The notes: a model not told the origin generated them from the sequence alone. Shown: positions 8,966 to 43,190, counted from the first letter of the stretch. The stretch is DNA of 64,000 nucleotides from a virus (IMGVR_UViG_3300014137_000003), one strand, 5' to 3'. Made by a program: numbers and translations.

Positions 8966-8989
8966 GAAGCAATTAGGGGTAGTAGTATT

Positions 8990-9268
8990 ATGTTAGGTTT
9001 AGTAAAGGTAAATAAGCTCATGGACTTGCTATCTAAGGATATCGAGTCTCAGCTTTGTCCAGTGTATCATATCGTTAATCCTCAAACTAAAGAGGAAGAA
9101 TTCCAGTTAACTCCTAGTCATGATTGGGCACCTATGTTGATTCGTGTACGTGATGAGAGGGTTTATACGGCAGAGTCGGCTATTAGGGGTACTTTAGGAA
9201 GACTGGAAAGGCAAGGCTATTTGGTAGCATCAAGGGTGGAAGAGTTATGTCAACTAAAAGAAAATTAG
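8990..9268 (+). CDS. hypothetical protein
   Basis: 92-aa ORF with an AGGGGTAG SD upstream. Confidence 0.6.
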   Translation: MLGLVKVNKLMDLLSKDIESQLCPVYHIVNPQTKEEEFQLTPSHDWAPMLIRVRDERVYTAESAIRGTLGRLERQGYLVASRVEELCQLKEN

Positions 9269-15641: not shown

Positions 15642-15713
15642 GCACCCTTGGTCTAATGGATATGACAGAGGACTTCTAATCCTTTAATACTGGTTCGATT
15701 CCAGTAGGGTGTA
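15642..15713 (+). tRNA. tRNA-Arg (anticodon TCT)
   Basis: Hand-folded cloverleaf with acceptor GCACCCT/AGGGTGT (G1:U72), anticodon arm GAGGA-CTTCTAA-TCCTT and T-arm CTGG-TTCGATT-CCAG. Confidence 0.8.
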
Positions 15714-15741
15714 TAGTTATAAAACTAAGGAGAAACAATCT

Positions 15742-16134
15742 ATGAGCAATTTACAACAAGGAGTACCAAAAACAAAGAAGGGTTATCTCTTATTTTCTAG
15801 ACCAAGTGAAGACTTTGGTATGTCAGCTAGTGTACCTCTTATTTATTATGGTAGTGTAGTTTCTCAGGCGAATGGTCAACCGATTGTTGGTATGTCGAGA
15901 AGTCCAATTGTCATTAAATCTAAGAAGGCTTTAGAAGACACAATTGAACTGTTACAGGGGAGTGGTTTGCTATCTCTATATTCGTATCTTACTGTAAGTG
16001 AGGTTCTGTATCAAAGAGTTTACTTCCCAAAGGTAAATAAATTCGGTAAACCTAAAGAAATGCTAGGTGATCGATTGATTGAGGTGCTTTCTGAAACACG
16101 TTTAGACAAACCACTTCCGAATTGGAAATTTTAA
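15742..16134 (+). CDS. hypothetical protein
   Basis: The start is moved to the internal ATG after AAGGAG. The track start at 15709 overlaps the tRNA. Confidence 0.6.
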   Translation: MSNLQQGVPKTKKGYLLFSRPSEDFGMSASVPLIYYGSVVSQANGQPIVGMSRSPIVIKSKKALEDTIELLQGSGLLSLYSYLTVSEVLYQRVYFPKVNKFGKPKEMLGDRLIEVLSETRLDKPLPNWKF

Positions 16135-16160
16135 GGGTTTGTAGGATAGAGGGATAACTC

Positions 16161-16454
16161 ATGACAGAAAATATTAAATTATTATCTATAGAACAAAGCC
16201 AAGCTATTAAGATGCTTGAGTCTGAAGAACTAGCTAAGCAGATTGAGACTTCTGAGCTATTATCTGCTGAGAATTACTTTTCAGCTTTCTCTTGGTATTG
16301 CGAAGAGTGTGGTGAACATAATGAGAGCGACCTTCGTTCAGGTTGTGAGATTGAGTGTGAGCACTGTGGTACTTACTGTCCAGATGTAGATGATGACACT
16401 TATAAACTAGCCGAGTTGGTTTATTCTCAGCTAGTTAAGCGTGGGGAGTATTAA
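16161..16454 (+). CDS. zinc-ribbon protein
   Basis: CEECGEH...CEIECEHCGTYC cysteine pairs. Confidence 0.6.
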   Translation: MTENIKLLSIEQSQAIKMLESEELAKQIETSELLSAENYFSAFSWYCEECGEHNESDLRSGCEIECEHCGTYCPDVDDDTYKLAELVYSQLVKRGEY

Positions 16455-16467
16455 AGGGGTATGTTAA

Positions 16468-16887
16468 ATGACAGATAGAGTAGTAAAACCTTACTATAGG
16501 TATAAACAAGAAGCTTATGGTAAACTTAGGGAATTAGCAGTTCGCTTACTTAAGGAGTCGGACTATTATATCAGGTCTGGGAATTCGGAAGATACTCCTA
16601 TTACCGTAGGTAGTAACCTGAAAGATTGGGTAAATGGAACGGTAAACTTTTACATTAAAGACCAGTGGGTATTATCTATTGTTGGTACTAAGGTTTCAGG
16701 TTTGGCTAGTTGCAGTCCGAGAGGTTCTTTAACTCTCTTGGAAGTCAAGGTTCTTAAAAATAACGTAGAGAAGTTATTCCGTCATGTCTCTAGCACTTTG
16801 GGAGCCCCTATCGTCCAGTGGATGGTTACTGAGGATTATTGTAAGTTTATCTCTAGTAACGGTACACGTTACATCAATAAGGGTTAG
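16468..16887 (+). CDS. paralog-family protein
   Basis: N-terminus VVKPYYRYKQEAYGKLRELAVRLLKE. Confidence 0.7.
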   Translation: MTDRVVKPYYRYKQEAYGKLRELAVRLLKESDYYIRSGNSEDTPITVGSNLKDWVNGTVNFYIKDQWVLSIVGTKVSGLASCSPRGSLTLLEVKVLKNNVEKLFRHVSSTLGAPIVQWMVTEDYCKFISSNGTRYINKG

Positions 16888-16915
16888 ACTAAGTCTTTCC
16901 TTTATCTTTAAAAGT

Positions 16916-16947
16916 ACACAACTGGGTTTCCTCTTAGTTGTGTTTTC
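16916..16947 (+). terminator. rho-independent terminator
   Basis: ACACAACT / AGTTGTGT 8-bp stem followed by TTTT. Confidence 0.65.
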
Positions 16948-16961
16948 TCCTTTAATTGAGT

Positions 16962-16990
16962 TTGTAACTATACTAAGAGTTTGGTAAACT
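16962..16990 (+). promoter_or_regulatory. strong promoter (TTGTAA-N14-TGG-TAAACT)
   Basis: Third copy of the 30-nt promoter box, followed by ATTAGTAT. Confidence 0.7.
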
Positions 16991-17020
16991 ATTAGTATGG
17001 GTTATCTCGTGGGGTATTTT

Positions 17021-17416
17021 ATGAACAATTTCAACGTAAGTTTACTAGCTAATATCAGTTCCCAAAAGGGTACTAATTGTAATGTTATGGCTGATATTTT
17101 CAAATTCATGCTAGTAAAGGAAGGAAGTTATTTGGATGAGCTTATCTCTGTATCTTTCGTACCTATTCATGGGGTAAGTCTAGTAAATCAGCCATGCTAC
17201 AGAAAAGGTGAATATTTATATTCCCTTATAGTTACTGGTACAGCTAGTAGTTCTACTGCCCTTAAGTTAGGGAAAATTTTAGTTAAAGTACTAGATGATT
17301 TTACGGAAAAATATGGTACTTGTTACTTCTTGTATAGTATGTTTGTTGAGAGGGAAGACAAAAAAGATTTATGCGTTCAATCTAGTCAAGAAAGGGTATT
17401 TTATGACAAACACTAA
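17021..17416 (+). CDS. hypothetical protein
   Basis: The start is set at the ATG at 17021 after a GGGGTA SD. The ATG at 16997 falls at the predicted transcription start. Confidence 0.55.
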   Translation: MNNFNVSLLANISSQKGTNCNVMADIFKFMLVKEGSYLDELISVSFVPIHGVSLVNQPCYRKGEYLYSLIVTGTASSSTALKLGKILVKVLDDFTEKYGTCYFLYSMFVEREDKKDLCVQSSQERVFYDKH

Positions 17417-17519
17417 CCTAATTACTAAATACATCAAACAGGATGGTTCAATTATTCATGTTATGAATACACTTCTCGCAGAGGTCTGTCTTACTGAACG
17501 AGAATTGGAGATGGTATAA
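17403..17519 (+). CDS. small protein (38 aa), N-terminal paralog of 17519-17815
   Basis: It shares KY.K.DG..I and L.AEVC motifs with the next gene. Confidence 0.35.
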   Translation: MTNTNLITKYIKQDGSIIHVMNTLLAEVCLTERELEMV

Positions 17520-17815
17520 TGGCTAAATATACGAAATATGACGGAACTCCTATTGAGGTAGATGCTCAGACCGAGTTGGTATATACTCGTTGGATTTCTC
17601 TTATCGGTGAGTTTGCTCGTTTTAGGAATTCAGGTAGGTTTCCTTTTTGGTCTGATGGGGTATATCTTCGCAAGAGCGATTTTCCTAGCTCTAATGCAGG
17701 GTTTAAACGTTTCTTGAAGTACACAATGCCACGCCATTATGATATTTACTGTACTGAGAAGTATAAAGTTACACCTATGAGTCAGCTTATTGCTGAGGTT
17801 TGTAGGAACGCTTAG
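17519..17815 (+). CDS. hypothetical protein
   Basis: 98-aa ORF whose ATG overlaps the upstream stop. Confidence 0.6.
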   Translation: MAKYTKYDGTPIEVDAQTELVYTRWISLIGEFARFRNSGRFPFWSDGVYLRKSDFPSSNAGFKRFLKYTMPRHYDIYCTEKYKVTPMSQLIAEVCRNA

Positions 17816-17825
17816 GGGGTATAAG

Positions 17826-18296
17826 ATGTCAGAAAAGTTTGTAAAGGGTGAAGAATTGGTTCACCCAGAACGTTATACAAAGAACAAGATTGAATCTTGG
17901 GACTTCACTCTGCAGTCTCTATTCCCTCATACTATTGCAACGGTAGTTGAGTATGTAATTCGCTATAAACATAAGGGTGGGTTACAGGACTTAGAGAAGG
18001 CAATTAACTGGACAAAGAAGGCTAGTCAGTCTTATCAGTATATTAGGTTATGTAGACCTAGGGAGCTTACTAGGATTGAATACTTTAAGAGTGTACCTTT
18101 TGTAGATGAAACTAACTTCCCAGACCTCTCATGGGAACAGCTTTTGATTCTACAGCACGCTCAAATGTTAACATTCTACTTAGATAACGAAGAGAAGTTT
18201 AACAGTTATATTGCTAAAATCTTAGAATCACTTGAGAAGCTTGTGGAAATGGAAAAAGAGAAAGAAGGTAGTGGTAATGATTTCAATGAAAAGTAA
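17826..18296 (+). CDS. DUF3310-like protein
   Basis: ERYTKNKIESWDF....YVIRYKHKGGLQDLEKAINW fits my recollection of the DUF3310 pattern (KY..R...KG...DL.KA). It is a paralog of 23466-23894. Confidence 0.6.
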   Translation: MSEKFVKGEELVHPERYTKNKIESWDFTLQSLFPHTIATVVEYVIRYKHKGGLQDLEKAINWTKKASQSYQYIRLCRPRELTRIEYFKSVPFVDETNFPDLSWEQLLILQHAQMLTFYLDNEEKFNSYIAKILESLEKLVEMEKEKEGSGNDFNEK

Positions 18297-18597
18297 GTTT
18301 AAGGTGTTATACCCAGCTATACTGATTGAATGGGTACTAGCAACAGGTTTGGGGTATCTCTCAACCTTGGTGCAGATGACGATTTTTAAATTAGTCTGCG
18401 AGGATGTTTCTCTTATCTTGTTTATTGTAAGTTATCTTCAGGTATTGATTATCTTATTTTCTTTTAATCATAAAGAAAAGACAGGTTTTCGTCAACTAAT
18501 GACTTATACTTTTGAAGAGGTTTTTAGGATAACTACACCTAGATCTTATAAACGTGCAATTGCCCTAGATAAGGAGAAAGAAGAAAATGGAATTTAG
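18277..18597 (+). CDS. membrane protein
   Basis: Two or three hydrophobic helices. The start is chosen at an internal ATG. Confidence 0.5.
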   Translation: MISMKSKFKVLYPAILIEWVLATGLGYLSTLVQMTIFKLVCEDVSLILFIVSYLQVLIILFSFNHKEKTGFRQLMTYTFEEVFRITTPRSYKRAIALDKEKEENGI

Positions 18598-18943
18598 TAC
18601 AGTAATGCTTATTCTTGGTTGTGCGTCTATCTTTAGGTTGGGAATTAACTATGCAGTCGCACTAATTGTTAGAGTTGCTTTAGACAAGTTTTATGAGGAT
18701 AAATTTAGGCAACTAAATAAGTACATGGTTAGGAAAGCCCTTTACAAGATTGTTATGTCTATGTGTTATGTTACTGTTTATAACGTAGTCAGCTCTTTAA
18801 ACTACCCAGTTCAGCAATCGTTATTGTTGATGGGTATGCTTGGTTTAGTGGAGTTAACGGTGTTTGCTTACTATGACCGCCCTAGCTATGGGTATGCACA
18901 GCTAAAACAACTCCTTGGAGCTTTGAGATGGGTACTAGTTTAG
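18587..18943 (+). CDS. membrane protein
   Basis: 118-aa ORF with several hydrophobic segments. Confidence 0.55.
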   Translation: MEFSTVMLILGCASIFRLGINYAVALIVRVALDKFYEDKFRQLNKYMVRKALYKIVMSMCYVTVYNVVSSLNYPVQQSLLLMGMLGLVELTVFAYYDRPSYGYAQLKQLLGALRWVLV

Positions 18944-18952
18944 GGGTAGTAG

Positions 18953-19501
18953 ATGTTTAAGTGTTTTAGAAGAAACAAAGAAATTACTTTTGACTCTTTA
19001 AGTACTCACAAGTTACGTTTAACTTGTTTTTCGGTAAATTTAGACGTTTTAGAAAAGTATGTAAATGGGTATTACTCTAGACGTGGAGTTCTTTATAGAG
19101 AAGGTAGTTACGAGTTGGTTTGTGAGGAACGTTCTTCCTTTAAGACTAAACTAGTTTGCCGTAGTGTAGACGGTTTTGAAGGTTTAGATCCCGAATTGCA
19201 TGTTGTTATAGATAAAGATGTGGAAGGTGAGTTAAAAGTTACTGTTACTTATAAAGATATTACTCTTCTTTTTGGGACTCCGTGGTCTAAATCTGTAACT
19301 ATATCTACTGATATAGATAGTCTTGAGAAGTTAGAGCATGAGTTCTATAAACTTCATAAATTAGGTATGTATGAGGTTTATGATTTGTTCATTGATTTTT
19401 CAGCTAGTCTGAGGGGGTTCTTACAAATCTCAGATGAAGAGTATAAGGAACTTCTAGAAAAGAAGACGAAAGAGTTGTGGGTTAGGAAAGAAGGTAAATA
19501 A
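18953..19501 (+). CDS. hypothetical protein
   Basis: 182-aa ORF with an AGGGGTAG SD. Confidence 0.6.
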   Translation: MFKCFRRNKEITFDSLSTHKLRLTCFSVNLDVLEKYVNGYYSRRGVLYREGSYELVCEERSSFKTKLVCRSVDGFEGLDPELHVVIDKDVEGELKVTVTYKDITLLFGTPWSKSVTISTDIDSLEKLEHEFYKLHKLGMYEVYDLFIDFSASLRGFLQISDEEYKELLEKKTKELWVRKEGK

Positions 19502-19543
19502 TGGTAGTACTGGGGTACGTTAACAAGTGTTAGGGGATGGCAA

Positions 19544-19810
19544 ATGATTATTATAGGGTTGTTTTGGTTTAGTTTGACGGGGTACTTATTTTTCATGAAG
19601 CACACCCCTGAGTTCATGTACTACGCTCAGTTATCTGAAAGGCAGATTAATTCAGCAATGGTGTTTAACTTAGCTTATGCAGTGTTATCTTGTCTAGTTT
19701 TAGTTTTATTGGGTAGGCTAGGTTTTGGGAATATACTAGAGCCATTAGCTTTGGTCTTGATGGTTATTGGTGCTTTACTTTCCCTCTATCCTCTATTGAG
19801 GAAGAGTTAG
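19544..19810 (+). CDS. membrane protein
   Basis: 88-aa ORF with three hydrophobic helices. Confidence 0.55.
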   Translation: MIIIGLFWFSLTGYLFFMKHTPEFMYYAQLSERQINSAMVFNLAYAVLSCLVLVLLGRLGFGNILEPLALVLMVIGALLSLYPLLRKS

Positions 19811-19865
19811 TTAGAAATATTAAATGTAGGGTAAGTTAAACTAAGAATTTATATTATTTATTATT

Positions 19866-19887
19866 CCCCTCGTTGTAGGGGTATTTT
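19866..19887 (+). terminator. hairpin terminator
   Basis: CCCCT-CGTTGT-AGGGG followed by TATTTT. Confidence 0.45.
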
Positions 19888-20022
19888 ATATTCAAGGAGT
19901 TATTCTACCAAAGTATGTAGTTAATGCAAGAGATTTCTTAGTCTTATCCTCAGGACGTACTTTCACAGAATCTAAGAAGTTAGAAAACTAGGCGAGATTA
20001 CCTTGCTTTAAACTTTAGTAAG

Positions 20023-20031
20023 TGTTAAAAT
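20023..20031 (+). promoter_or_regulatory. extended -10 promoter (TGTTAAAAT)
   Basis: Followed by AAGTATTAT. Lies upstream of 20144. Confidence 0.5.
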
Positions 20032-20143
20032 AAGTATTATAGTGATGTGGTAGACCTCCTATATAGTTTATCTTTATAGGATTGGAAGTCTTTCAAATAA
20101 ACTATAAGTATTTAGAAAGCATCGAATGTTAAGGGGTATCTAA

Positions 20144-20377
20144 ATGTCAGAAGTTTCTATAGAACAGCGTGTTTCTTACTGGAAGAATAAAATAGGTATT
20201 GGTTCTGTATGGTTATTACAGAGTTTCAATACTCGCAAAGCTACAGTTGAGAGAGTATATTTCGACCTTAATTGTGGTTCAGTTGTAGTAGATTACACTT
20301 TAGAGGATTGTCCGCAAGCTATTCAGACTGCGGAAGTAGAGTATTTTCTAAACTACATTGTTCAGTGTAGGGCATAG
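20144..20377 (+). CDS. hypothetical protein (paralog of 26231-26467)
   Basis: It shares W....GSVWL.Q......TV..V.......V.YT..D.P and F.NYIV with the 26231 ORF. Confidence 0.6.
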   Translation: MSEVSIEQRVSYWKNKIGIGSVWLLQSFNTRKATVERVYFDLNCGSVVVDYTLEDCPQAIQTAEVEYFLNYIVQCRA

Positions 20378-20400
20378 CAACGCAAGAAAGGAGAGAGTAT

Positions 20401-20739
20401 ATGAAAGTAATCAAACGTAACGGAACGAAAGTCGACTTTGAAGCAATTAAAATTTATAATGCAATGTATAAGGCAGCACGTTCAGTTTATGCAGTAAATG
20501 ACGACTTAGCTAATACTTTATACCGTATCGCTCGAAGTATTGAAGCACAGCTATTAGAAAGTAAAACAGAAGTAGTTACTATTTCTATGATACAGGCTTT
20601 GGTAGAAGAGAAACTGCTATCTGAGGGGTACCTTCACATTGCAGAGCATTACATCTCTTATCGTTTACAGCGTGATATTGAGCGTACTGACTATAAGGAT
20701 AAGGTTATTGTTAGGTTAAAGTTGGAACAAATTAGGTGA
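20401..20739 (+). CDS. stand-alone ATP-cone domain protein
   Basis: MKVIKRNGTKVDFEAIKIYNAM matches the ATP-cone signature (VIKRdG..e.Fd..KI) of NrdR, NrdA and NrdD N-termini. Confidence 0.7.
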   Translation: MKVIKRNGTKVDFEAIKIYNAMYKAARSVYAVNDDLANTLYRIARSIEAQLLESKTEVVTISMIQALVEEKLLSEGYLHIAEHYISYRLQRDIERTDYKDKVIVRLKLEQIR

Positions 20740-20913
20740 GGTGTTATATGAAAGAGGTAAAACCTTCGGTTTATTGGCAGTTTTTTCAACTATTGTGTTA
20801 GGTCTAGGATTTGTTCTTTGTAAGAAGGAACAAAAATAAAGATAAGTCAAGTATTTAGCTTAGATTTAGTGGCAAGTTGGCTTTTTAGTCTGTTTGCTTT
20901 TCTTTTTCCATTT

Positions 20914-20922
20914 TGTTAAAAT
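20914..20922 (+). promoter_or_regulatory. extended -10 promoter (TGTTAAAAT + ATTAGTAT)
   Basis: Promoter-family member upstream of 20949. Confidence 0.6.
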
Positions 20923-20948
20923 ATTAGTATATAAAGGAGGATTTTGTA

Positions 20949-21209
20949 ATGAAATTATTATTTCCAGAACATGGTAGGTATACTAAAAAGGGAGTCCTCG
21001 GTTTTTATAATGAAAAGGAAAACTGGGTTCACTTAATTTACCCAGACAAGATGGATAACCCCTTTTTAGGTGGTGGTTTGCTGGATGATTCCATAGATAG
21101 GTTTACTAAAGAGACTGGTATTAATGTTTCTTTCACTCCAGTGGGTTCTAGGTATGGGTTGAGTGATGACAGGGAAACCTTGGGGTATTACGAAGAGGTG
21201 CTTGTATGA
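20949..21209 (+). CDS. hypothetical protein
   Basis: 86-aa ORF with an AAGGAGG SD. Confidence 0.55.
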   Translation: MKLLFPEHGRYTKKGVLGFYNEKENWVHLIYPDKMDNPFLGGGLLDDSIDRFTKETGINVSFTPVGSRYGLSDDRETLGYYEEVLV

Positions 21210-21277
21210 TTGCGTCTGCTAGAAATAAGAAGTAACCCTTATTTACAGACTATTTATCTCACTCCCAACTAACTAGT

Positions 21278-21643
21278 ATGTATAACTCTTTAGCTAGGAT
21301 GCCCTATAAAGACCCTAGAATAGTTTATACTAATCTGCATTTAATTTTAGAGATTACTTTAAAGAAAATAGCAATATATCATGGCTTTGAGGTTTCTGTT
21401 ACTTCTCATAGGATTGGTGACTCTTTACTGAAATTAAAAGAAGTTGAGCCTTTTGTTAAAGATATGTGGTCATTTCTACAAGGTCATGGGTTATTAAGGT
21501 ATTTGCAACGTTTTCCTTATGATTCTCTTAGATTTAACTCTAAAGAGCCTATACCTCCTATACCTATGGATGTATTCTTTGTAATTACAAGAAATTCATT
21601 AAGAAGGTTAGAGTACATAGAAAAAGAATCGTTAACATTATAG
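21278..21643 (+). CDS. hypothetical protein
   Basis: 121-aa ORF with no clear SD. Confidence 0.45.
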   Translation: MYNSLARMPYKDPRIVYTNLHLILEITLKKIAIYHGFEVSVTSHRIGDSLLKLKEVEPFVKDMWSFLQGHGLLRYLQRFPYDSLRFNSKEPIPPIPMDVFFVITRNSLRRLEYIEKESLTL

Positions 21644-21675
21644 TCTTAAATTAAGTTGAATTAGCTTATCTAATT

Positions 21676-21684
21676 TGGTAAACT
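21676..21684 (+). promoter_or_regulatory. extended -10 promoter (TGGTAAACT + ATTAGTAT)
   Basis: Promoter-family member upstream of tRNA-Met. Confidence 0.6.
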
Positions 21685-21778
21685 ATTAGTATAGTAGCTT
21701 AGGCTACTAGGGTAGGATGCATTTAATACGTGTAAGAGTCATGGTGGAAGTGTCTAAAGCGTCCTACCTTTTCTATTT

Positions 21779-21852
21779 GTACCTTTAGCTTAGTTGGTTA
21801 AAGCCCTCGGCTCATAACCGAGTCACCGTAGGTTCGAGTCCTGCAAGGTACA
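21779..21852 (+). tRNA. tRNA-Met or Ile2 (anticodon CAT)
   Basis: Acceptor GTACCTT/AAGGTAC, D-arm GCTT-AGTTGGTTA-AAGC, anticodon arm CTCGG-CTCATAA-CCGAG and T-arm GTAGG-TTCGAGT-CCTGC. It does not look like an initiator (1-72 paired, no GGG/CCC anticodon stem). Confidence 0.85.
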
Positions 21853-21878
21853 TAATTTTAAGAAATGAGGTATTCTAG

Positions 21879-22367
21879 ATGGGAATTGTGAATCCAGTAT
21901 TTGTGAATCCAGCAAAAACTTATGATTTTGATACACATAGGTTAAGTGTAAATGAGGTTAGACTTACCTCTGCACATGGTAGCTCTGATGGAGTTGTTCG
22001 TGTATCTTTAGCCGTATATGGAGAGGTGGTAGCCAAGGGTGGATTTCTTGCGAAACTAGGTATGAAACCTAAGCCTCAAAAGTATTCTCTTTCTCTTGGG
22101 TATAGGGTATCTTTCGACAACCAAGTAGTTTCAGACTACTCCTTTGTAGGGTTAGATGTAGGAAAAGTACAGGAAGACAGTAAGTACTTAGTACGAAGTT
22201 CCTCTCTAGAGAAATTAGTATCTAAGGGTATTAAGACTACTAAAAGTTTTGCATTAGTTACAGAAAGTTTTAATGTAATTAAACCTAACCTTTATTCAGA
22301 TATTATGCTCTATACAAAAAGAATGGCTACTAGTCGCAAAGGGAGGGAATCTCCTTGGAACAAATAA
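21879..22367 (+). CDS. hypothetical protein
   Basis: 162-aa ORF. Confidence 0.6.
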   Translation: MGIVNPVFVNPAKTYDFDTHRLSVNEVRLTSAHGSSDGVVRVSLAVYGEVVAKGGFLAKLGMKPKPQKYSLSLGYRVSFDNQVVSDYSFVGLDVGKVQEDSKYLVRSSSLEKLVSKGIKTTKSFALVTESFNVIKPNLYSDIMLYTKRMATSRKGRESPWNK

Positions 22368-22774
22368 CTTTACAAAGCTACCATAATAGGTTAGATTGTC
22401 TATTAACTGAAGGTACTTTATCTGATTTGCTTGAGTTTTTGGGTATGCAGTATTTTGAAGGAAGTAGGCAAGAAGGTAATGAGAACCGTGACGTTTATGA
22501 ATTCGTTGATAAGGGTACTATGGCGATAGAGGTTCTATTGAATGAATCCAAGGTTCGCTTTTGGAGTAACTTCTCTAGTTGGATGAGCCTACCTAATAAT
22601 GACAATTTTTGGTCACTATTATTTGATGGGTATCCTAAATTAGTAAAAAGGCTAATAGAGTTACTAGATAAAGAGTACTCATACTTAGGTTCTCTGTCTT
22701 ATGAGGTACGGTTAGATGGTAAGTTTAATGAATTCAAGAAGGAATACTTAGAGTTGAATAACTCTAAATCATGA
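22355..22774 (+). CDS. hypothetical protein
   Basis: TTG start 7 nt after GGGAGGG. Confidence 0.5.
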   Translation: MEQITLQSYHNRLDCLLTEGTLSDLLEFLGMQYFEGSRQEGNENRDVYEFVDKGTMAIEVLLNESKVRFWSNFSSWMSLPNNDNFWSLLFDGYPKLVKRLIELLDKEYSYLGSLSYEVRLDGKFNEFKKEYLELNNSKS

Positions 22775-22796
22775 TAAGAAGTTTTAGGAGGTTTAT

Positions 22797-23105
22797 ATGC
22801 AAAGGCAATACATCGTAATGAATGGTTATGGAAATAATGGAATTATAACTACTTACTTAGTAGACGTAGAACGTAGGGTACGTTGGTTTAACAATAAGGC
22901 AAGAGAAACTGGCTTAAATTTGCGTATTCGACTAACAGGAGACTCAGAAGAGTATGCATACTATGCAGAATTGATTTTGCCTAATAAATCTAAGATTCCT
23001 TTTCTTATCCGTCCGGATTACGGTTGGGGTATGTATGGAAGGACAGACTTTTCTAAAGAAGCTATGGAGTGGTATTATCAGGCTTGGTACTTGTGGAAAT
23101 CTTAA
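22797..23105 (+). CDS. hypothetical protein
   Basis: 102-aa ORF with an AGGAGG SD. Confidence 0.6.
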   Translation: MQRQYIVMNGYGNNGIITTYLVDVERRVRWFNNKARETGLNLRIRLTGDSEEYAYYAELILPNKSKIPFLIRPDYGWGMYGRTDFSKEAMEWYYQAWYLWKS

Positions 23106-23114
23106 TTTTAAGTT

Positions 23115-23147
23115 GTAAGTAGTTTGCTCTGAAGACTACTTGCTTTT
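23115..23147 (+). terminator. rho-independent terminator
   Basis: GTAAGTAGT / ACTACTTGC 9-bp stem followed by TTTT. Confidence 0.65.
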
Positions 23148-23172
23148 CTATTGGAAAGAGTGGGTTATAGGT

Positions 23173-23430
23173 ATGAAAGACAAAGACAATTATAAGTCAA
23201 CAATGTGCGTCAAGCTGAATCACCCAGAAGCTTCAACGGTATTTAATGTTATCTGTACTAAGGAGCAAGAAAACTTTCTAAAGTTCTTAGCAAGTATTTC
23301 TACTAATGTTTCTATGAATAGGTATGAACCTACAATGAGTGTGGCTGAGGGGGTAGGGAACTGCGAAAGTGATACTTTAAACGGTACTAAGAAGGCTTTT
23401 ATCTTCGATGCAACAATGTTGGAGGAGTGA
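23173..23430 (+). CDS. hypothetical protein
   Basis: The start is moved downstream of the terminator hairpin. Confidence 0.5.
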   Translation: MKDKDNYKSTMCVKLNHPEASTVFNVICTKEQENFLKFLASISTNVSMNRYEPTMSVAEGVGNCESDTLNGTKKAFIFDATMLEE

Positions 23431-23465
23431 GAAGTATCTTGCTTACTAACGAAGTGGAGGTAATC

Positions 23466-23894
23466 ATGAAAGAAAAATTCGTAAAAGACGAAGAACTAGT
23501 AAATCCAGAACGGTATATGCAAAATAAGATTGAAGCTTGGGATTTTGCCATTCAAAGTCTCTTTCCTTACCCTCTAGGGGTAGTTTCTAAGTATGTAATT
23601 CGTCATAGACATAAGGGTGGTAAACAAGACTTAGAAAAGGCTCTTATTTGGGCTAAGAAAGCTAAGGAATCTTATAAGTATATTTCTTTGAGTTGTCCTA
23701 GTGGTATTATTTACTTTGAAGAGGTACCTAAGGCAAGTGTAGAGAACTTTCCAGACCTTGGTGACGAGGAGATTTTAATATTAAAACTTTTACAAGAGGT
23801 TACTTCTCGTCTAAGGGAGGAGGAGATGTTCGAAGGAGTAATGTCTCACATTATTAAAATATTAGAGGGAATGATAGAAAACTTCCCTAGTTAG
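23466..23894 (+). CDS. DUF3310-like protein (paralog of 17826-18296)
   Basis: MKEKFVKDEELVNPERYMQNKIEAWDF...YVIRHRHKGGKQDLEKALIW. GGAGG SD. Confidence 0.6.
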   Translation: MKEKFVKDEELVNPERYMQNKIEAWDFAIQSLFPYPLGVVSKYVIRHRHKGGKQDLEKALIWAKKAKESYKYISLSCPSGIIYFEEVPKASVENFPDLGDEEILILKLLQEVTSRLREEEMFEGVMSHIIKILEGMIENFPS

Positions 23895-23918
23895 TAGAAG
23901 ATTATTGAAGGTTTTATT

Positions 23919-24305
23919 ATGAGAACTGTTAGGTTAGTTGAGGGTATATCGGAGCTTGGTACAAACATTCGGACAATTTTAGAGTATTTGGCTTTGAATG
24001 GTGAACATTTTGTAACATTCGTTCTTCGTGACCCTCTAGGTGAGATTTTAGTGTACAACCATTTATCTATGAAGGATGATGGTAGTATCGTAAGCAAGGT
24101 AATGCTGAGGGAAGAGGAAGAACCAGAAGAAAGTTCTACTGTCGAACCTACCTTATTGATGTTTAAGGGTGTTATTGCTTACTCTAAGGAAATTCCCCCG
24201 TCAGAGAAGTTTAAAGATACTTTCTCTAGTAAGTGGGATGAGATTGTTGCGGTTACTGATTTGAATGTTAGTGTTAATAGGTGGCGACAAGCCAATATCT
24301 TGTAG
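23919..24305 (+). CDS. hypothetical protein
   Basis: 128-aa ORF. Confidence 0.6.
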   Translation: MRTVRLVEGISELGTNIRTILEYLALNGEHFVTFVLRDPLGEILVYNHLSMKDDGSIVSKVMLREEEEPEESSTVEPTLLMFKGVIAYSKEIPPSEKFKDTFSSKWDEIVAVTDLNVSVNRWRQANIL

Positions 24306-24335
24306 GGGGTATTAAAGATAGCTTAAGTTTTATTA

Positions 24336-24376
24336 GAATATGCGAGTAGTTTGTTACGCAGACTGCTTGCATATTC
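24336..24376 (+). terminator. long hairpin (terminator or processing site)
   Basis: GAATATGC / GCATATTC outer stem that continues inward with G:U pairs. There is no clean U-tract. Confidence 0.4.
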
Positions 24377-24386
24377 TGTAAGTCTT

Positions 24387-24395
24387 TGCTAAAAT
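24387..24395 (+). promoter_or_regulatory. extended -10 promoter (TGCTAAAAT)
   Basis: Lies 54 nt upstream of the tmRNA 5' end. Confidence 0.6.
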
Positions 24396-24448
24396 AGATG
24401 TATAGTTTGTTAGGGGTATCTCCTTGCTAGGCTATAAGATATTATTTA

Positions 24449-24830
24449 GGGGTCGTCTTGGATTCGACAGGCGACTGAGATTAAGAACTTCACTCCGAGT
24501 GGTGACGTAATCACCAAACTTAAATATAACTGCAAACACAGTTCAACCTGTTGAGATGGCAGCCTAACAAGTCTCCCTCGACTTGTATGTCTGTCTAATC
24601 AACACAAGTAAATTACCGATTAAGGTGAGCGACTATCTGTAAGTAACGGTGCAGTGGTAGCTATAAACCACGTTACTCGCTAGAAGGGGTATCTCAGCCC
24701 TCTAGTTAAATACGAGATATAGCTTTAGGGTTTGTGCATTTACCTAAGGTCGAATGTTTAAATGTAGCAGAGTGCTATAGAGTTTTTAGTTGAGGTTGTT
24801 TGGACGTGGGTTCGAAACCCACCGGCTCCA
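24449..24830 (+). ncRNA. ssrA: tmRNA (SsrA), tag ANTVQPVEMAA
   Basis: The 5' end GGGGTCGTCTTGGATTCGACAGG and 3' end GGACGTGGGTTCGAAACCCACCGGCTCCA form an alanine-type acceptor with G3:U70. The tag ORF (GCAAACACAGTTCAACCTGTTGAGATGGCAGCCTAA) spans 24532-24567. Confidence 0.9.
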
Positions 24831-24833
24831 TTA

Positions 24834-24906
24834 GGCTTGATAGCTCAATTGGTAGAGCAGTGGACTCTTAATCCACGGGTTGTAGGTTCGAGCCCTACTC
24901 AGGTCA
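24834..24906 (+). tRNA. tRNA-Lys (anticodon CTT)
   Basis: Acceptor GGCTTGA/TCAGGTC, D-arm GCTC-AATTGGTA-GAGC, anticodon arm GTGGA-CTCTTAA-TCCAC and T-arm GTAGG-TTCGAGC-CCTAC. Confidence 0.85.
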
Positions 24907-25335
24907 TGGCTGATGTTGTAATATCAACATTCCAGCTAGTAAATTCCTTTTGCCTAAGAAGTACAATTTCTAAGCAATAAAAAGCACTGGCAATATCTGT
25001 CTGATTGTACTGGGCAGATGTCTAAAAACTTGTTGGTTAAAAGGTTCTCCAACATACGATACCAGGAGGCGTTAGAGGTATCATTTCAGGCTTAGTACCT
25101 CGATAAGGGGTAGTAAGTCATAGCTAATACTTAGGTATTAGTGAACCTTTATAGAATAACGAGTAAATAAGTGCAACTTGAGAGGTCGTTGCAGGTACAG
25201 CCAGGAAACCTTTTAAATAGTAGCCCTTAGGATAGACACTGTGTAAGTCGAGAATTGATCAGCTCGCAATCAGATGATTCTATCTGAAAGTAGTTGGCAG
25301 GGGTGAGAGCTTGTTGTTTTATAGGGGTATTCTTA

Positions 25336-25408
25336 TCCACCATAGCTCAGTTGGTAGAGCACCTGACTGTTAATCAGGTTGTCACAGGTTCGAGACCTGT
25401 TGGTGGAG
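25336..25408 (+). tRNA. tRNA-Asn (anticodon GTT)
   Basis: Acceptor TCCACCA/TGGTGGA, anticodon arm CCTGA-CTGTTAA-TCAGG and T-arm ACAGG-TTCGAGA-CCTGT. Confidence 0.9.
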
Positions 25409-25535
25409 TTCAGTAAAAATCTTCCCAGATATTTCCCTTTTACTGAAGCTAATCGTATAATTATCGATAAGACGACAGGAATACGGTTAGTCAGACCTAG
25501 CTAGGCAAGTCTAATTGTTTAGCTAGGTTTATTAT

Positions 25536-25677
25536 TGGGGTATAGCCAAGTGGTAAGGCAGTAAGAGAACTGTGGAACGGAGGTTCGAATCCTCTCAAGA
25601 CGACTAGGTCGTGCTTGTAGCCAAGGGGTAAGGCTCACAGCTACTTATGACCGTGGGTTCGAATCCCACTACCTCGA
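25536..25677 (+). ncRNA. composite double-tRNA-like RNA (permuted tRNA body nested in the anticodon loop of another)
   Basis: Four mutually consistent helices: 25536-42 with 25670-76 (7 bp), 25561-65 with 25644-48 (5 bp), 25570-74 with 25636-40 (5 bp perfect), and 25596-602 with 25610-17 (7 bp plus a bulge). It also has two D-arms and two GGTTCGAATCC T-arms with tRNA-exact spacing. Confidence 0.6.
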
Positions 25678-25731
25678 TAGTTCAGTCCTTGTAAAGTGGT
25701 CTGTAACTACTTTGCTAAGTATCCTCTAATG

Positions 25732-25740
25732 TGGTAAACT
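25732..25740 (+). promoter_or_regulatory. extended -10 promoter (TGGTAAACT)
   Basis: Upstream of 25813. Confidence 0.55.
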
Positions 25741-25812
25741 TACAGTATCATAGTTAGGGGTATTCTATATTTCTAACAGTTAAGACTAGTAATTTATCTG
25801 AGAGGTGTACTA

Positions 25813-26175
25813 ATGGAAGTTCTATTAGGTAAGACTAAGTTAAGTGGTAATGCAAGAACTGTCTCTATGAAAACAACAATACCTTTGGTAGTTCAAGAGA
25901 ATTTGCATGTAACTGAAGGTCAAGAAATTTTCCTTTATTTTAAGGAAGGACGTGTTTATCTTGAGATTTCTAAGAAGGATGAATCCTCTTATGGGCTTGG
26001 CAAGGATATTTGTTTCCTAGGAAGTAAAACTTTAGTAAATCAAGGTTCTGTGCTTGCATTTTCTTTCGCTAATGTGCTAAGAGAGGTTTTGATGTTATCT
26101 ATTGGTGACTACCTTGGTTATTACTTTAGTGAGGGTAGAATTTATATTAAAAAGTATGAAGAGGGTTTTAGTTGA
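25813..26175 (+). CDS. tandem AbrB/SpoVT-like (swapped-hairpin) DNA-binding protein
   Basis: Two repeats of the pattern ..IP..V.E.L.V.EGQEIFLYFKEGRVYLE / ...VLREVL.LSIGDYLGYYFSEGRIYIKK, which is typical of AbrB/MazE-type domains. Confidence 0.5.
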   Translation: MEVLLGKTKLSGNARTVSMKTTIPLVVQENLHVTEGQEIFLYFKEGRVYLEISKKDESSYGLGKDICFLGSKTLVNQGSVLAFSFANVLREVLMLSIGDYLGYYFSEGRIYIKKYEEGFS

Positions 26176-26230
26176 TTCTCTAGGACTTGTTAACTTATAG
26201 GGGTAAGCCTTGGAATAGGGGGTATTTAAA

Positions 26231-26467
26231 ATGGAAAAACAAACAATTCAAGAACAATTAGACCATTGGAGAAGGTTACTTCCAGTAGGTTCAGTGTGGC
26301 TTACTCAACAACTCTCTTGTAGGTTTGTAACAGTCAAGGGCGTTCATTATAGTTTATTTCCTAATTGTATTATGGTGCAGTACACTAGAGATGATGCACC
26401 TGACACAGTTTATCAAGAGATGGTAGGTGCTTTCTACAACTATATTGTAAGTAAACAAGTTAGATAA
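26231..26467 (+). CDS. hypothetical protein (paralog of 20144-20377)
   Basis: 78-aa ORF with an AGGGGGTA SD. Confidence 0.6.
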   Translation: MEKQTIQEQLDHWRRLLPVGSVWLTQQLSCRFVTVKGVHYSLFPNCIMVQYTRDDAPDTVYQEMVGAFYNYIVSKQVR

Positions 26468-26480
26468 GGTAGTAGGTTAG

Positions 26481-26540
26481 GTAGGTTACTATTTTGAAGA
26501 TGGCAAGATCTTTATTAAGAAGTACGTTGAAGAAGATTAG
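26481..26540 (+). pseudogene. remnant of an AbrB-like gene 3' end
   Basis: It translates to VGYYFEDGKIFIKKYVEED*, parallel to LGYYFSEGRIYIKKYEEGFS* at the end of 25813-26175. A stop lies immediately upstream. Confidence 0.5.
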
Positions 26541-26568
26541 CAAGTAGTTTGCCTTAGTTATCGATGTA

Positions 26569-26577
26569 TGGTATACT
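26569..26577 (+). promoter_or_regulatory. extended -10 promoter (TGGTATACT)
   Basis: Upstream of a structured leader and tRNA-Glu. Confidence 0.55.
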
Positions 26578-26751
26578 ATATGTATAGTATTTATTAGTAG
26601 TTATATTCTAGCTGAGCGTTTAGGGGTAACGACTACCAAACGTCTGTTAGCATATTCGTCTATATGGGAGTTGGGGTCGCCCGAACAAAAAAGAACACGG
26701 TTGCGAAAGTCAAATCTGTCTGCGGAAAAGCAGAGGCTTACCCTACAATGA

Positions 26752-26823
26752 GCACTGTTGGTCAAGTGGTTAAGACACTGCCTTTTCACGGCAGTAACAG
26801 GAGTTCGATTCTCCTACAGTGTA
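26752..26823 (+). tRNA. tRNA-Glu (anticodon TTC)
   Basis: Acceptor GCACTGT/ACAGTGT (G1:U72), anticodon arm CTGCC-TTTTCAC-GGCAG and T-arm AGGAG-TTCGATT-CTCCT. Confidence 0.85.
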
Positions 26824-26825
26824 TT

Positions 26826-26896
26826 GTCGATAAGGTAGCATAGCCTTACCTCTGGTATCTGGGTAAGGAGATGTCGGTTCATATCCGACTAAAGTT
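26826..26896 (+). ncRNA. tRNA-like fragment (T-arm plus long hairpin)
   Basis: T-arm GTCGG-TTCATAT-CCGAC and a 7-bp hairpin CCTTACC/GGTAAGG with an 11-nt loop. No acceptor pairing was found. Confidence 0.25.
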
Positions 26897-26929
26897 TTGC
26901 TTGATGGTGTAAGCGACAAATTTAAATAT

Positions 26930-27003
26930 CGGGAAGTAGCTCAGCTTGGTAGAGCACTTGCTTTGGGAGTAAGGGGTCGCAGGTTCGAATCCTGTCTTCC
27001 CGA
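26930..27003 (+). tRNA. tRNA-Pro (anticodon TGG)
   Basis: Acceptor CGGGAAG/CTTCCCG, D-arm GCTC-AGCTTGGTA-GAGC, anticodon arm CTTGC-TTTGGGA-GTAAG and T-arm GCAGG-TTCGAAT-CCTGT. Confidence 0.9.
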
Positions 27004-27266
27004 TGGCAAAAGATTGTATTTGAAGTAATTCATTGCATTTCGGCTTAATAGCTTGGGTAAGGTTGTTAAGTCATTAGGTGCAAGCATAATGTGCAACCGT
27101 TATGTGAGTGCTTTAGTTCCTTAATTACAAGGACGCCTAAGTGAAGGGTTAATATTCACTAACGCTCCTCAGCGATACGAGGTGACGACAACGGTTCGAT
27201 TAATAGCTAAATTTAGTCAGATAAGGTTGTTGAGATTTAATGCATTGTGTAGATGTTATCCCCTTT

Positions 27267-27275
27267 TAGTATAAT
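27267..27275 (+). promoter_or_regulatory. -10 box (TAGTATAAT)
   Basis: Lies within the RNA-island spacer. Confidence 0.4.
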
Positions 27276-27426
27276 TTAGATTCGTACCTTTCTTTCTATA
27301 GGTAACTCTCTACAAACGGTTTAGGGTAAGTAAAAAGCCGTTCATTAAATCAATATAAAACCCAGTTGCAAAAACGATATTGACATCTCCTTAATGTCTT
27401 AAATTACTTACTTTTTATCGTTTTTA

Positions 27427-27577
27427 GCTTGTGTGGTGGAATTAAGAAGACACATGGGACAGTGCTATAGCTAGGGTATCCTAGTGAGTTGCCATGCTCG
27501 CCAAACCCCATAAAGTACCGAATTAACGGTCGCCTCAGTAAATGGCAGGCTTGCGGGTGCAACTCCCGTCACAAGTG
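27427..27577 (+). ncRNA. 151-nt tRNA-like RNA with a large internal insertion
   Basis: 7-bp acceptor GCTTGTG/CACAAGT (G1:U72), an atypical T-arm GCGGG-TGCAACT-CCCGT, and about 75 extra nt containing hairpins (CTAGG-GTAT-CCTAG, ACCG..CGGT). Confidence 0.35.
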
Positions 27578-27590
27578 TTAGGAGGGTATC

Positions 27591-27938
27591 ATGCAGAGAG
27601 AAGATTTGAAAGAGTTTCTAGGATGGTTTTTAATTAACTTAGTGGCGTTTGTTAATTCTTGCTTTATTGGTTTCTTGTTCTTTATGCTTACTTATAAGTT
27701 ACATGTTCATTTTGGGTTTCCAGAGCCTAGTGTTAACGGATTAGTTCTTCTAGTTTGTTTAAATAGTGTCTTTTTCAAACTTAAGTTAGAATTAGAGTTA
27801 GAGGAATCAGAACTTTCCACCAAAGAGGTTCTATCTCAGACTGTTAGTAGGACTTTGTTTATGGTTTGTATCCTAGTTGTAATCTTTAATATTGATACTG
27901 CTTTTAGTTTTCTTCAAAATGCAATTGGAATAGATTGA
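27591..27938 (+). CDS. membrane protein
   Basis: 115-aa ORF with several hydrophobic helices. AGGAGGGTA SD. Confidence 0.55.
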   Translation: MQREDLKEFLGWFLINLVAFVNSCFIGFLFFMLTYKLHVHFGFPEPSVNGLVLLVCLNSVFFKLKLELELEESELSTKEVLSQTVSRTLFMVCILVVIFNIDTAFSFLQNAIGID

Positions 27939-27961
27939 TTACTCAACTTGCATTATATTCA

Positions 27962-28045
27962 GCACCCATGGCGGAACAGGCAGACGCTCAGGACTTAAAA
28001 TCCTGTGTCCAGAGGGACGTCCGAGTTCGAGTCTCGGTGGGTGTA
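27962..28045 (+). tRNA. tRNA-Leu (anticodon TAA), type II
   Basis: Acceptor GCACCCA/TGGGTGT (G1:U72), anticodon arm CAGGA-CTTAAAA-TCCTG, a long variable arm and T-arm CCGAG-TTCGAGT-CTCGG. Confidence 0.85.
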
Positions 28046-28326
28046 TGTGGTTAGAGGTTATCCCAGTATAAAACCTCAAGGTTTATAGATCATTGCGTAC
28101 TCCTTTGGGGAGGAGAGGAGCTCTACTCTCGCTAAATTGAGCAGTCGGTTTGGTTTCTTTTTGTGGGGACATATTTACATATCTCTTAATAATATATGCA
28201 GAATGTTATTAGTCCTCCTAGCTAGGGGTTCCTAAGGGTAATGATAGTAACAGGAAAAGGACGAGGGGGTTATATGGGGTATTTTAGCTATTTACTTCCA
28301 GTAATCTGAAGTGGGTTTGCATTCCA

Positions 28327-28337
28327 TGGTGTAGAAT
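28327..28337 (+). promoter_or_regulatory. promoter (TGGTGTAGAAT)
   Basis: The same box occurs at 59367. It lies directly upstream of the tRNA-like RNA at 28354. Confidence 0.5.
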
Positions 28338-28353
28338 CTCCTAGCTACACGGT

Positions 28354-28458
28354 ACTTGGGTAGTGATGAGGTGCAATTCCTTATCATGAATCGGAAAGCG
28401 TGACAGCGTACCTATCTTTAAGGGGTAGGTGATGAGGGTTCGAGCCCCTCTCCAAGTA
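28354..28458 (+). ncRNA. 105-nt aberrant tRNA-like RNA
   Basis: Acceptor ACTTGGG/TCCAAGT (7 bp), T-arm GAGGG-TTCGAGC-CCCTC, an internal 9-bp hairpin with a T-loop-like GGTGCAATTCC, and a second hairpin with a 9-nt loop (ATCTTTAAG). Confidence 0.35.
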
Positions 28459-41812: not shown

Positions 41813-41840
41813 GTAAACAGTTTGCTTATTTCTTAAGTTT

Positions 41841-41850
41841 TGGGTAAAAT
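41841..41850 (+). promoter_or_regulatory. promoter (TGGGTAAAAT + AGTATTAT)
   Basis: Upstream of the J-domain gene. Confidence 0.5.
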
Positions 41851-41888
41851 AGTATTATAAAAATTAGTTAGAAAGTTGGTATTTCGAG

Positions 41889-42131
41889 ATGGCTACGAGT
41901 AACCCATATCGAGTATTAGGTGTTAGTCCTAGTACGTCTTACGAAGAGGCTAAGCGTATCTATCGTAGGAAGGTTAAGAACCTCCACCCCGATTTAGGGG
42001 GCGACGCTAAGTTGATGATGGAAGTCAAGGAGGCTTGGGATTATCTCAATGCTAATCGAGATACTATGCTTGGTCAAACTAGCTCAGTCGGGGTAACCCA
42101 CAAATCACTTTTTGAAATTTTAGATAAATAG
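41889..42131 (+). CDS. J-domain (DnaJ-like) co-chaperone
   Basis: NPYRVLGVSPSTSYEEAKRIYRRKVKNLHPDLGGD contains the HPD motif. Confidence 0.85.
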   Translation: MATSNPYRVLGVSPSTSYEEAKRIYRRKVKNLHPDLGGDAKLMMEVKEAWDYLNANRDTMLGQTSSVGVTHKSLFEILDK

Positions 42132-42141
42132 GAGTAATAAA

Positions 42142-42603: not shown

Positions 42604-42609
42604 ATTTGA

Positions 42610-42636
42610 AAGGTTGGGTTTCCAACCTTTTCTTTT
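42610..42636 (+). terminator. rho-independent terminator
   Basis: AAGGTTGG-GTTT-CCAACCTT followed by TTCTTTT. Confidence 0.8.
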
Positions 42637-42654
42637 ACACTGGAGGGTGGTACT

Positions 42655-43101: not shown

Positions 43102-43125
43102 CATATAAAATGGGGGTTAAATAGA

Positions 43126-43149
43126 CTAGCCTAAATAGGCTAGTTTTTT
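43126..43149 (+). terminator. rho-independent terminator
   Basis: CTAGCCT-AAAT-AGGCTAG followed by TTTTTT. Confidence 0.8.
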
Positions 43150-43181
43150 AGTTGAATAGGTTATATTTTTATCTAAGATTT

Positions 43182-43190
43182 TGGTATAAT
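43182..43190 (+). promoter_or_regulatory. extended -10 promoter (TGGTATAAT + GAGTATAT)
   Basis: Upstream of 43270. Confidence 0.6.

Follow-up and report, generated by a model that had tools for sequence, protein, structure and literature searches.

A conserved tmRNA and its SmpB as a probable second trans-translation system on a sequence-level relative of the conjugative megaplasmid pXO16

On mobile elements, transfer-messenger RNA (tmRNA) together with SmpB was reported in 2020 in a survey statement that covers huge phages and mentions 'analogous suites' for large putative plasmids, without structure or tag analysis (PMC7162821). About 2.3% of phage genomes contain a tmRNA gene (PMC9004378), as of 2014 smpB had not been known from any phage (PMC4131195), and no functional test of a mobile-element tmRNA or experimental study of a mobile-element tmRNA-SmpB pair was found in the literature. 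The other described element of relevance is pXO16, a conjugative, aggregation-mediated plasmid of Bacillus thuringiensis serovar israelensis, whose 350 kb have been called 'terra incognita' and have few homologues on record in databases. A 'phage-like nature' has been raised for it from its uniform gene orientation, but it never gave plaques; its tip transfer locus encodes a cell-wall hydrolase besides two ATPases, and single-stranded DNA is transferred via a machinery distantly related to type IV secretion (PMC6199540, PMC9673590). Here, a stretch of 64,000 nt from the IMG/VR entry IMGVR_UViG_3300014137_000003 was analysed (hereafter, the window), which carries a tmRNA gene and, ~20 kb away on the same strand, a gene for SmpB. 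Because the RNA structure is intact, the RNA and its tag are under purifying selection and SmpB is intact and conserved, the two would form, with good probability, a working second trans-translation system on an extrachromosomal element, which is, judged by its gene order, a compact relative of pXO16.

The first-pass annotation of the window had described a full-length SsrA with an alanine-type acceptor, a T-arm, a resume codon GCA and a tag ending in Met-Ala-Ala (MAA), followed within 3 nt by a tRNA-Lys, as well as an smpB gene further along, and all of these were recovered (Table 1). ARAGORN called the tmRNA at the same start and with the tag ANTVQPVEMAA, encoded at positions 84-119 of the gene, while the Rfam covariance model RF00023 matched over its entire length (model positions 1-374, window positions 24449..24833) with 103.9 bits and an E-value of 1.5e-39, the curated gathering score being 47 bits. 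Direct reading of the sequence gave an acceptor stem of 7 bp (GGGGTCG/CGGCTCC) with G3:U70 and the discriminator A at position 24830, followed by TTA instead of CCA. In a MAFFT alignment of 35 family sequences, the G3:U pair was identical in 35/35, and the acceptor pair C6-G was replaced by U-A in 11 of them. The resume codon stands directly after AAATATAACT, the stop codon TAA occupies 24565..24567, and the motif AUAACU preceding GCA was invariant across the alignment, U(-5) and A(-4) included.

A total of 36 distinct tmRNAs from independent assemblies were gathered, forming a family 78-95% identical to the window copy. Four IMG/VR contigs share the arrangement of tmRNA and tRNA-Lys and have the tag AKTVQPVEMAA, a metagenome scan added 27 more tmRNA copies, and diverged relatives were reached via a neighbouring protein of 128 aa. 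The exact tag-coding string had no match in IMG/VR, where a single base (N to K) sets the relatives apart, and the tmRNA region plus 24 kb of the window, compared at the nucleotide level with 50,697 phage records, gave tRNA-level matches only. Seven further pattern matches in which ARAGORN found no tmRNA were set aside, as they had no Rfam tmRNA match either and would be chance hits or copies cut off at a contig end. The 44 sampled cellular tmRNAs, found beside the closest cellular SmpBs, did not exceed 64% identity to the window tmRNA, and none of them was close enough to be considered a donor. Since the closest cellular SmpBs were likewise only ~54% identical, neither the tmRNA nor smpB is a recent capture.

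The tag reading frame comprised 11 codons plus TAA in 36/36 family members. Codons 1, 4 and 5 showed synonymous variation only, synonymous changes appeared at codons 6 and 10 as well, and residue changes were limited to tag positions 2 (N/K), 6 (P/N), 7 (V/A), 8 (E/G/R), 9 and 10. At the C-terminus, all 36 members had M/I, A/V and A, with Met in 35 and Ile in one at position -3, never Leu, and with Ala-Ala as the last two residues in 30 members and Val-Ala in 6. Such a pattern is consistent with a translated peptide whose C-terminus matters.

The secondary structure was evaluated with an explicit helix model in window tmRNA coordinates, whose pairs were counted on the 35-sequence alignment, an all-against-all helix scan having been too noisy on account of G-U pairs. 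Over the 93 modelled pairs, 92.3% of the cells held standard pairs, compared to 35-44% when the partners were slid by 1-3 columns. Changes on both sides were observed in 22 pairs and 108 cells, the shuffle means being 13.5 pairs and 36.9 cells; none of the 500 shuffles came up to the observed values. In particular, helix 2 (helices 2 and 3 of the model) had 25 pairs, 93-100% paired, with compensatory changes in nine. After the tag, three H-type pseudoknots were supported: the helices of the first were 100% and 98% paired with seven compensatory pairs, those of the second were 89% and 99% paired and mostly conserved, with one compensatory pair, and those of the third were 95% and 92% paired with one compensatory change from A-U to G-C. 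Helix 5 was found in every clade in two sequence forms, the one not present in the window (CUAAGC-UUCG-GCUUAG) taking in the stop codon. The regions of helix 5 and of the element at the second pseudoknot position (PK2) were misregistered by MAFFT, and both were checked separately; a first PK2 stem (148-152/170-174) was dropped for being inconsistent between clades.

The SmpB encoded in the window matched Pfam family PF01668 with 160.1 bits against a cut-off of 27 (E 4.3e-47, profile positions 2-141 of 143), and aligned with solved SmpBs through residue 141-142 of 144 (E 1e-30). Its motifs K119-G-K-K122, Y124 and D125-K126-R127 are intact and are followed by 17 mostly basic residues; the motif conclusions rest on a comparison with E. 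coli SmpB together with the alignment with solved SmpBs. In vivo, tmRNA activity is lost on mutation of KGKK, of the aromatic residue or His, of DKR or of the basic helix, as well as on truncation of the tail, DKR being needed for peptidyl transfer, and where E. coli has His136, Tyr also works (PMC4151336); the window SmpB has Tyr at this position. Moreover, in the diverged relative L001 the syntenic SmpB was 83% identical to that of the window compared with 58-65% for the flanking proteins, and SmpB is therefore conserved above background. Family SmpBs clustered at 98-99% and 83% identity to the window SmpB. The matches at ~54% were initially candidates for diverged family members and were rejected as such, for they are cellular, lying beside CdaA/YbbR, MutY and GAPDH.

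The carrier was examined over ~122 kb, comprising the window, 48 kb on its upstream side and 10 kb on its downstream side, out of a contig of 180.8 kb. In the window and its surroundings, all the genes lie on one strand and many are orphans. The evidence for a virus consists of the listing of four contigs in IMG/VR, the tRNA array and a phage-type replisome, with a DNA polymerase (phrog_17, E 6.5e-96) and both subunits of a T4-type topoisomerase II (phrog_543, E 1.9e-122; phrog_551, E 1.3e-71), besides a DnaB-like helicase, a primase, a NAD-ligase, SbcCD-like proteins, an RNase HII and a UvrD-like helicase. The tmRNA had been annotated as phage-encoded, an assignment against which two results speak. 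On the one hand, searches of the ~122 kb with PHROGs and Pfam detected no gene for a capsid, portal, terminase or tail protein, although such proteins are perhaps too divergent for profiles, and four large orphan proteins compared with the PDB sequences revealed no virion protein. On the other hand, 30 of 147 open reading frames (ORFs) of the element had pXO16 homologues, 22-40% identical and in near-perfect colinear order, including an FtsK-like protein, a helicase, the two topoisomerase II subunits, the DnaB-like helicase, the primase, the NAD-ligase with HNH, the DNA polymerase, the SbcCD-like protein, a protein of ~1440 aa, DnaJ, the UvrD-like helicase and ParM. With the polymerase of the ~350-kb B. 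thuringiensis plasmids (pXO16), that of the element shared 38% identity across 930 residues (E 3e-175), while no match in the phage collection exceeded 28%; core genes closest to those of phages would be expected of a phage, and the polymerase came out nearest to pXO16. From the tip transfer locus, the FtsK/SpoIIIE-type ATPase homologue alone was seen in the ~122 kb (26% identity, syntenic position), and its other genes would lie elsewhere on the contig. Furthermore, this ATPase and the ParM-like, ParB-like, ArdC-like and GtfA/GtfB genes are at least as much in keeping with a plasmid as with a phage. Overall, a plasmid-like reading of the carrier is slightly ahead of a phage and of a hybrid. 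Contigs of the family reach 200,357 bp, and the tmRNA lies near one end or mid-contig in contigs of 174, 176.7 and 180.8 kb; given these differing positions, the contigs are circular permutations of a genome of some 175-181 kb, and the element would be circular or circularly permuted, with a size of about 175-200 kb over the family. A member of the Bacillota (Firmicutes) is its probable host.

The probable working of the pair can be outlined as follows. The tmRNA would be made within the tRNA-cluster transcript and excised by the host RNase P and 3′ processing enzymes and, because CCA is not encoded, completed by the host CCA-adding enzyme. Judging by the known family, it would then be charged by the host alanyl-tRNA synthetase (AlaRS) via G3:U70 and bound by the SmpB of the element, and the complex would enter ribosomes stalled on truncated mRNA. 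Resumption at GCA would append (A)ANTVQPVEMAA and end at TAA, freeing the ribosome, and the hydrophobic-Ala-Ala end would most likely still send the product to host ClpXP-type proteolysis. As a likely benefit, a foreign replicon that is large and heavily expressed, and that brings its own tRNAs, would gain additional capacity for ribosome rescue.

Several observations weigh against a working pair throughout the family. SmpB and tmRNA were seen directly together in two genomes only (the window and IMGVR_UViG_3300008274_000007), with the pairing inferred in a third lineage, L001. In the protein collection just two SmpB clusters exceeded 54% identity, and therefore some of the tmRNA clades may be without SmpB. 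Regarding the RNA, the elements at the first pseudoknot position (PK1) and at PK2 were supported as hairpins only, the second stem of PK1 having 2-3 bp at most and the PK2 hairpin having no pseudoknot partner consistent across the family. The RF00023 alignment of the pseudoknot region has low posterior probability, so that the failure of covariance models there, envisaged beforehand as evidence against the gene, was encountered in part, but it is overridden by the covariation within the family. Finally, the copy of relative L096 (1487..1771) is without 87 nt spanning two pseudoknots, with the tag frame and the tRNA-like domain intact, and thus some copies may be decaying, or those two pseudoknots may be dispensable.

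Among the other explanations, the one that survives best leaves the molecular mechanism as it is and differs only in the selective reason. The pair and the tRNA array would be an insurance against RNA damage, sustaining translation when mRNA or tRNA is cleaved by toxin RNases, anticodon nucleases or RNA-targeting CRISPR, from host defences or from competitors, or when host transcripts undergo wholesale degradation. The location of the tmRNA inside an array of 9-10 tRNA genes is in line with this, as is the presence on the same element of an ArdC-like anti-restriction protein (phrog_7245, E 3.7e-33) and of other host-interaction genes. A comparison with pXO16 points the same way: the whole plasmid has no annotated virion gene, tRNA, tmRNA or SmpB, and the place of the RNA genes of the element is taken in pXO16 by 4.4 kb (40,088..44,524, GC 33%) with no ORF > 70 codons and no tRNA according to ARAGORN. 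As this backbone relative has none of them, the tRNAs, the tmRNA and SmpB would be an added accessory module. However, no sequence link was seen between the module and any particular defence system, and a simple dosage or codon-usage benefit fits equally. Protection against RNA damage is regarded as unlikely.

Lower in probability, and on balance improbable, is the proposal of the first-pass annotation, namely a phage with autonomous ribosome rescue whose MAA tag diverts the products from ClpXP, by escape, by use of another protease or by tagging without degradation. The canonical ssrA degron seen by ClpXP is …LAA-COOH, with Ala-Ala preceded by Leu, a residue that the family does not have there. 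Among the 44 sampled cellular tmRNAs, LAA was dominant, with VAA, FAA, AFA, SFA, TYA and a single MAA (L033, Spirochaetales) also appearing. The MAA ending is uncommon, yet not unique: the stated contrast with LAA stands for most of the cellular sample, but not for the spirochaete tag. The tag is indeed unlike the endings dominating in cells, and its body, TVQP(V/A)(E/G/R), is conserved in the family and differs from cellular tags, which together with the four related IMG/VR contigs and the replisome genes matching phage families (phrog_543, phrog_17) speaks for this proposal. Nevertheless, the last three residues are hydrophobic, small and Ala in 36/36 members, as if the canonical degron were selected, and cells use VAA, FAA and AFA besides MAA. 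The retention of this end would be expected of a C-terminal degron that is still under selection. Regarding the phage itself, ~122 kb without a virion gene and a backbone colinear with a proven conjugative plasmid stand in its way. Rescue would not be autonomous either, as host AlaRS, EF-Tu, RNase P, 3′ processing and CCA-adding enzymes and proteases would still be required.

Given the purifying selection on a hydrophobic-Ala-Ala end and the existence of a cellular MAA tag, the proposed re-routing of the tagged products by the divergent tag is speculation of low probability. In its most developed version, which we consider distinctly doubtful, A(N/K)TVQ…MAA would be a private mark by which rescued proteins on pXO16-like elements meet another fate than the host-tagged ones, such as a different protease or adaptor, a slower decay or recognition by an element-encoded factor. 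If so, the tmRNA-SmpB of the element would compete with the host tmRNA, and the carriers would be previously unrecognised pXO16-like giant plasmids or plasmid-phage hybrids now filed as viruses.

That the tmRNA is non-functional, as a relic captured from a host, an attachment (att) site remnant left by integration into ssrA or a decoy titrating host SmpB as proposed for DS6A, is very improbable, for although prophage ssrA fragments and a phage gene with the tRNA-like domain only are documented (PMC9004378, PMC4131195) and one relative has the internal deletion of 87 nt, the gene has its full length, support for every helix and compensatory evolution, the tag frame is intact in 36/36 with synonymous changes, the sequence is far from all sampled cellular tmRNAs, the cognate SmpB is co-conserved, and no integrase family was returned by the Pfam and PHROGs scans of the window ORFs.

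Table 1. Positions in the window of the tmRNA, its structural elements, smpB and the neighbouring RNA genes
Feature	Position	Strand	Source and remarks
tRNA array: Arg-TCT, Met, Lys, Asn, Glu, Pro, Leu-TAA (twice)	15642..28458	+	ARAGORN
Promoter-like element TTGCAT, 17-nt spacer, extended -10 TGcTAAAAT	24367..24395	+	Sequence reading
One-piece tmRNA (ssrA), 382 nt	24449..24830	+	ARAGORN, Rfam RF00023; CCA not encoded
PK1-position hairpin UGGUGA/UCACCA	24500..24516	+	Helix 4, 93.7% paired; U-A to C-G in 7 sequences
Tag frame GCA..GCC TAA, ANTVQPVEMAA*	24532..24567	+	ARAGORN, comparison of 36 members
Helix 5, 7-bp hairpin directly 3′ of the stop codon	24567..24586	+	RNAfold
PK2-position hairpin UUACC-GAUUAA-GGUGA	24613..24628	+	Alternative UUGUC/GACGA, two fully compensatory pairs
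H-type pseudoknot, stems 189-193/202-206 and 195-200/223-228 (tmRNA numbering)	24637..24676	+	Helices 8, 9
H-type pseudoknot, stems 238-242/249-253 and 243-247/266-270	24686..24718	+	Helices 11, 12
H-type pseudoknot, stems 278-281/295-298 and 288-294/311-317	24726..24765	+	Helices 13, 14
T-arm GTGGG-TTCGAAA-CCCAC	24806..24822	+	Sequence reading, Rfam; stem invariant in 35 sequences (helix 15)
tRNA-Lys(CTT)	24834..24906	+	ARAGORN, Rfam 68.9 bits; 3 nt past the tmRNA
smpB, 144 aa, complete C-terminal tail	44525..44959	+	Pfam PF01668
tRNA-Arg(CCT)	45985..46058	+	ARAGORN, Rfam; downstream of smpB and the HU gene; conserved in L001-L003

Concerning transcription, the sequence TGCTAAAAT was found at 24387..24395, with TTGCAT 17 nt upstream, and this promoter-like element was identical in relative L098 and had 1-3 changes in L102 and L125. 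The promoter claimed beforehand for the tmRNA was thus retrieved at a consensus level only, and the consensus promoter scanner made no call at the site because the -35 hexamer has just 3/6 matches; a promoter of its own is plausible. No terminator-like site was returned by the scanner between 23800 and 26300, and the tmRNA is likely co-transcribed with the downstream tRNAs, of which ARAGORN and Rfam agreed on the start of the tRNA-Lys. Overall, nine tRNAs were called by ARAGORN and eight confirmed by Rfam. The second tRNA-Leu(TAA), 70 nt long at 28389..28458, was an ARAGORN call below the Rfam tRNA gathering score, and in relative L098 a 'tRNA-???' with a four-base anticodon was called at 5794..5867.

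Other genes of the element were also recorded. The protein of 1448 aa (window 37466..41812) had no match in Pfam, PHROGs, PDB or the phage collection, and it was 25% identical over 877 residues to the syntenic 1440-aa protein of pXO16; likewise, the ParM-like protein had no match in the phage collection. Within 3914..6800 of the window, GtfA-like (4145..5554) and GtfB-like (5538..6800) glycosyltransferases of the accessory-Sec type were found, for which a second tier of homologues, 42-49% identical, sits mostly on contigs of ~185-245 kb, suggesting a larger sister clade of such elements. As a pointer to the host, the GtfA-like gene was discarded, its homologues in Streptococcus, Staphylococcus, Aerococcus and Macrococcus being only 36-40% identical. 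The NAD-dependent DNA ligase is apparently split into two ORFs, one matching the N-terminal and the other the C-terminal part of the family (L142, 2418..3689 and 8320..9255), between which lies an ORF with HNH and ParB-like domains (L142, 4568..6061). To the right of the window (L136, 5558..13492), a protein with an FHA domain, a PP2C phosphatase and a Ser/Thr kinase are followed by a 990-aa orphan and the ArdC-like protein; of these, the phosphatase and the kinase have homologues in pXO16, where an FHA-domain gene is also present. A sortase substrate (LPNTG, a hydrophobic stretch and RKKEQK) is encoded ~3 kb upstream of the tmRNA in one diverged relative only (L094, 3..791), and no LPXTG surface protein was found in the window.

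When compared with bacterial tmRNA (RF00023) and SmpB (PF01668), the pair has in common a tRNA-like domain with G3:U70, the T-arm, helix 2, U-A at -5/-4, the resume codon GCA, a short tag with a hydrophobic-Ala-Ala end, a hairpin at the stop codon and then pseudoknots, as well as the KGKK, Tyr/His and DKR motifs and the basic tail of the protein. It differs in being extrachromosomal, a second system and a sequence lineage of its own, in the tag body TVQPVE, and in having hairpins at PK1 and PK2 followed by three pseudoknots. The full tmRNAs of the Bxz1 mycobacteriophage group, Bacillus phage G and the marine phages with two-piece tmRNA also stand usually beside tRNAs, and their function was never tested (PMC4131195, PMC9004378). 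These phages use the SmpB of the host, whereas here a cognate SmpB is co-conserved, and no nucleotide similarity was detectable between the window tmRNA and theirs. An ssrA-derived gene on a mobile element is likewise found in mycobacteriophage DS6A, but that gene has little beyond the tRNA-like domain and is a possible inhibitor of trans-translation (PMC4131195), while here the whole RNA and the tag are conserved.

In the phage collection, SmpB matches appeared in 68 of 50,697 records, and the convincing ones were Lak phages, LR756502 and LR745206 (~640 kb). The other IMG/VR SmpB loci that were fetched share only SmpB with the element, and the acquisitions would therefore be independent. With the huge phages and the large putative plasmids (PMC7162821), the element shares the condition of a big mobile replicon with tRNAs, tmRNA and SmpB, although those elements have 540-735 kb compared with about 175-200 kb here, and their SmpBs are only 39-44% identical. 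With pXO16 (pBTHD789-1, NC_018516.1), it shares the genes on one strand, mostly orphans, and the colinear backbone; however, pXO16 is twice its size, the identity is only 22-40%, and conjugation of pXO16 is proven experimentally (PMC6199540, PMC9673590). Contigs of ~180 kb listed as viruses thus share their backbone with this plasmid, and the gain of tRNAs and a rescue system by its relatives suggests that translational self-sufficiency may be selected in giant replicons generally, beyond the huge phages. The family also offers a clean test case, with a conserved tmRNA whose tag is distinctive, an SmpB that co-evolves with it and dozens of natural variants, one of them minus two pseudoknots. 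In summary, the system is of a known kind, that of large mobile replicons with tmRNA and SmpB, and what is new is its smaller and unexpected carrier, related to pXO16.

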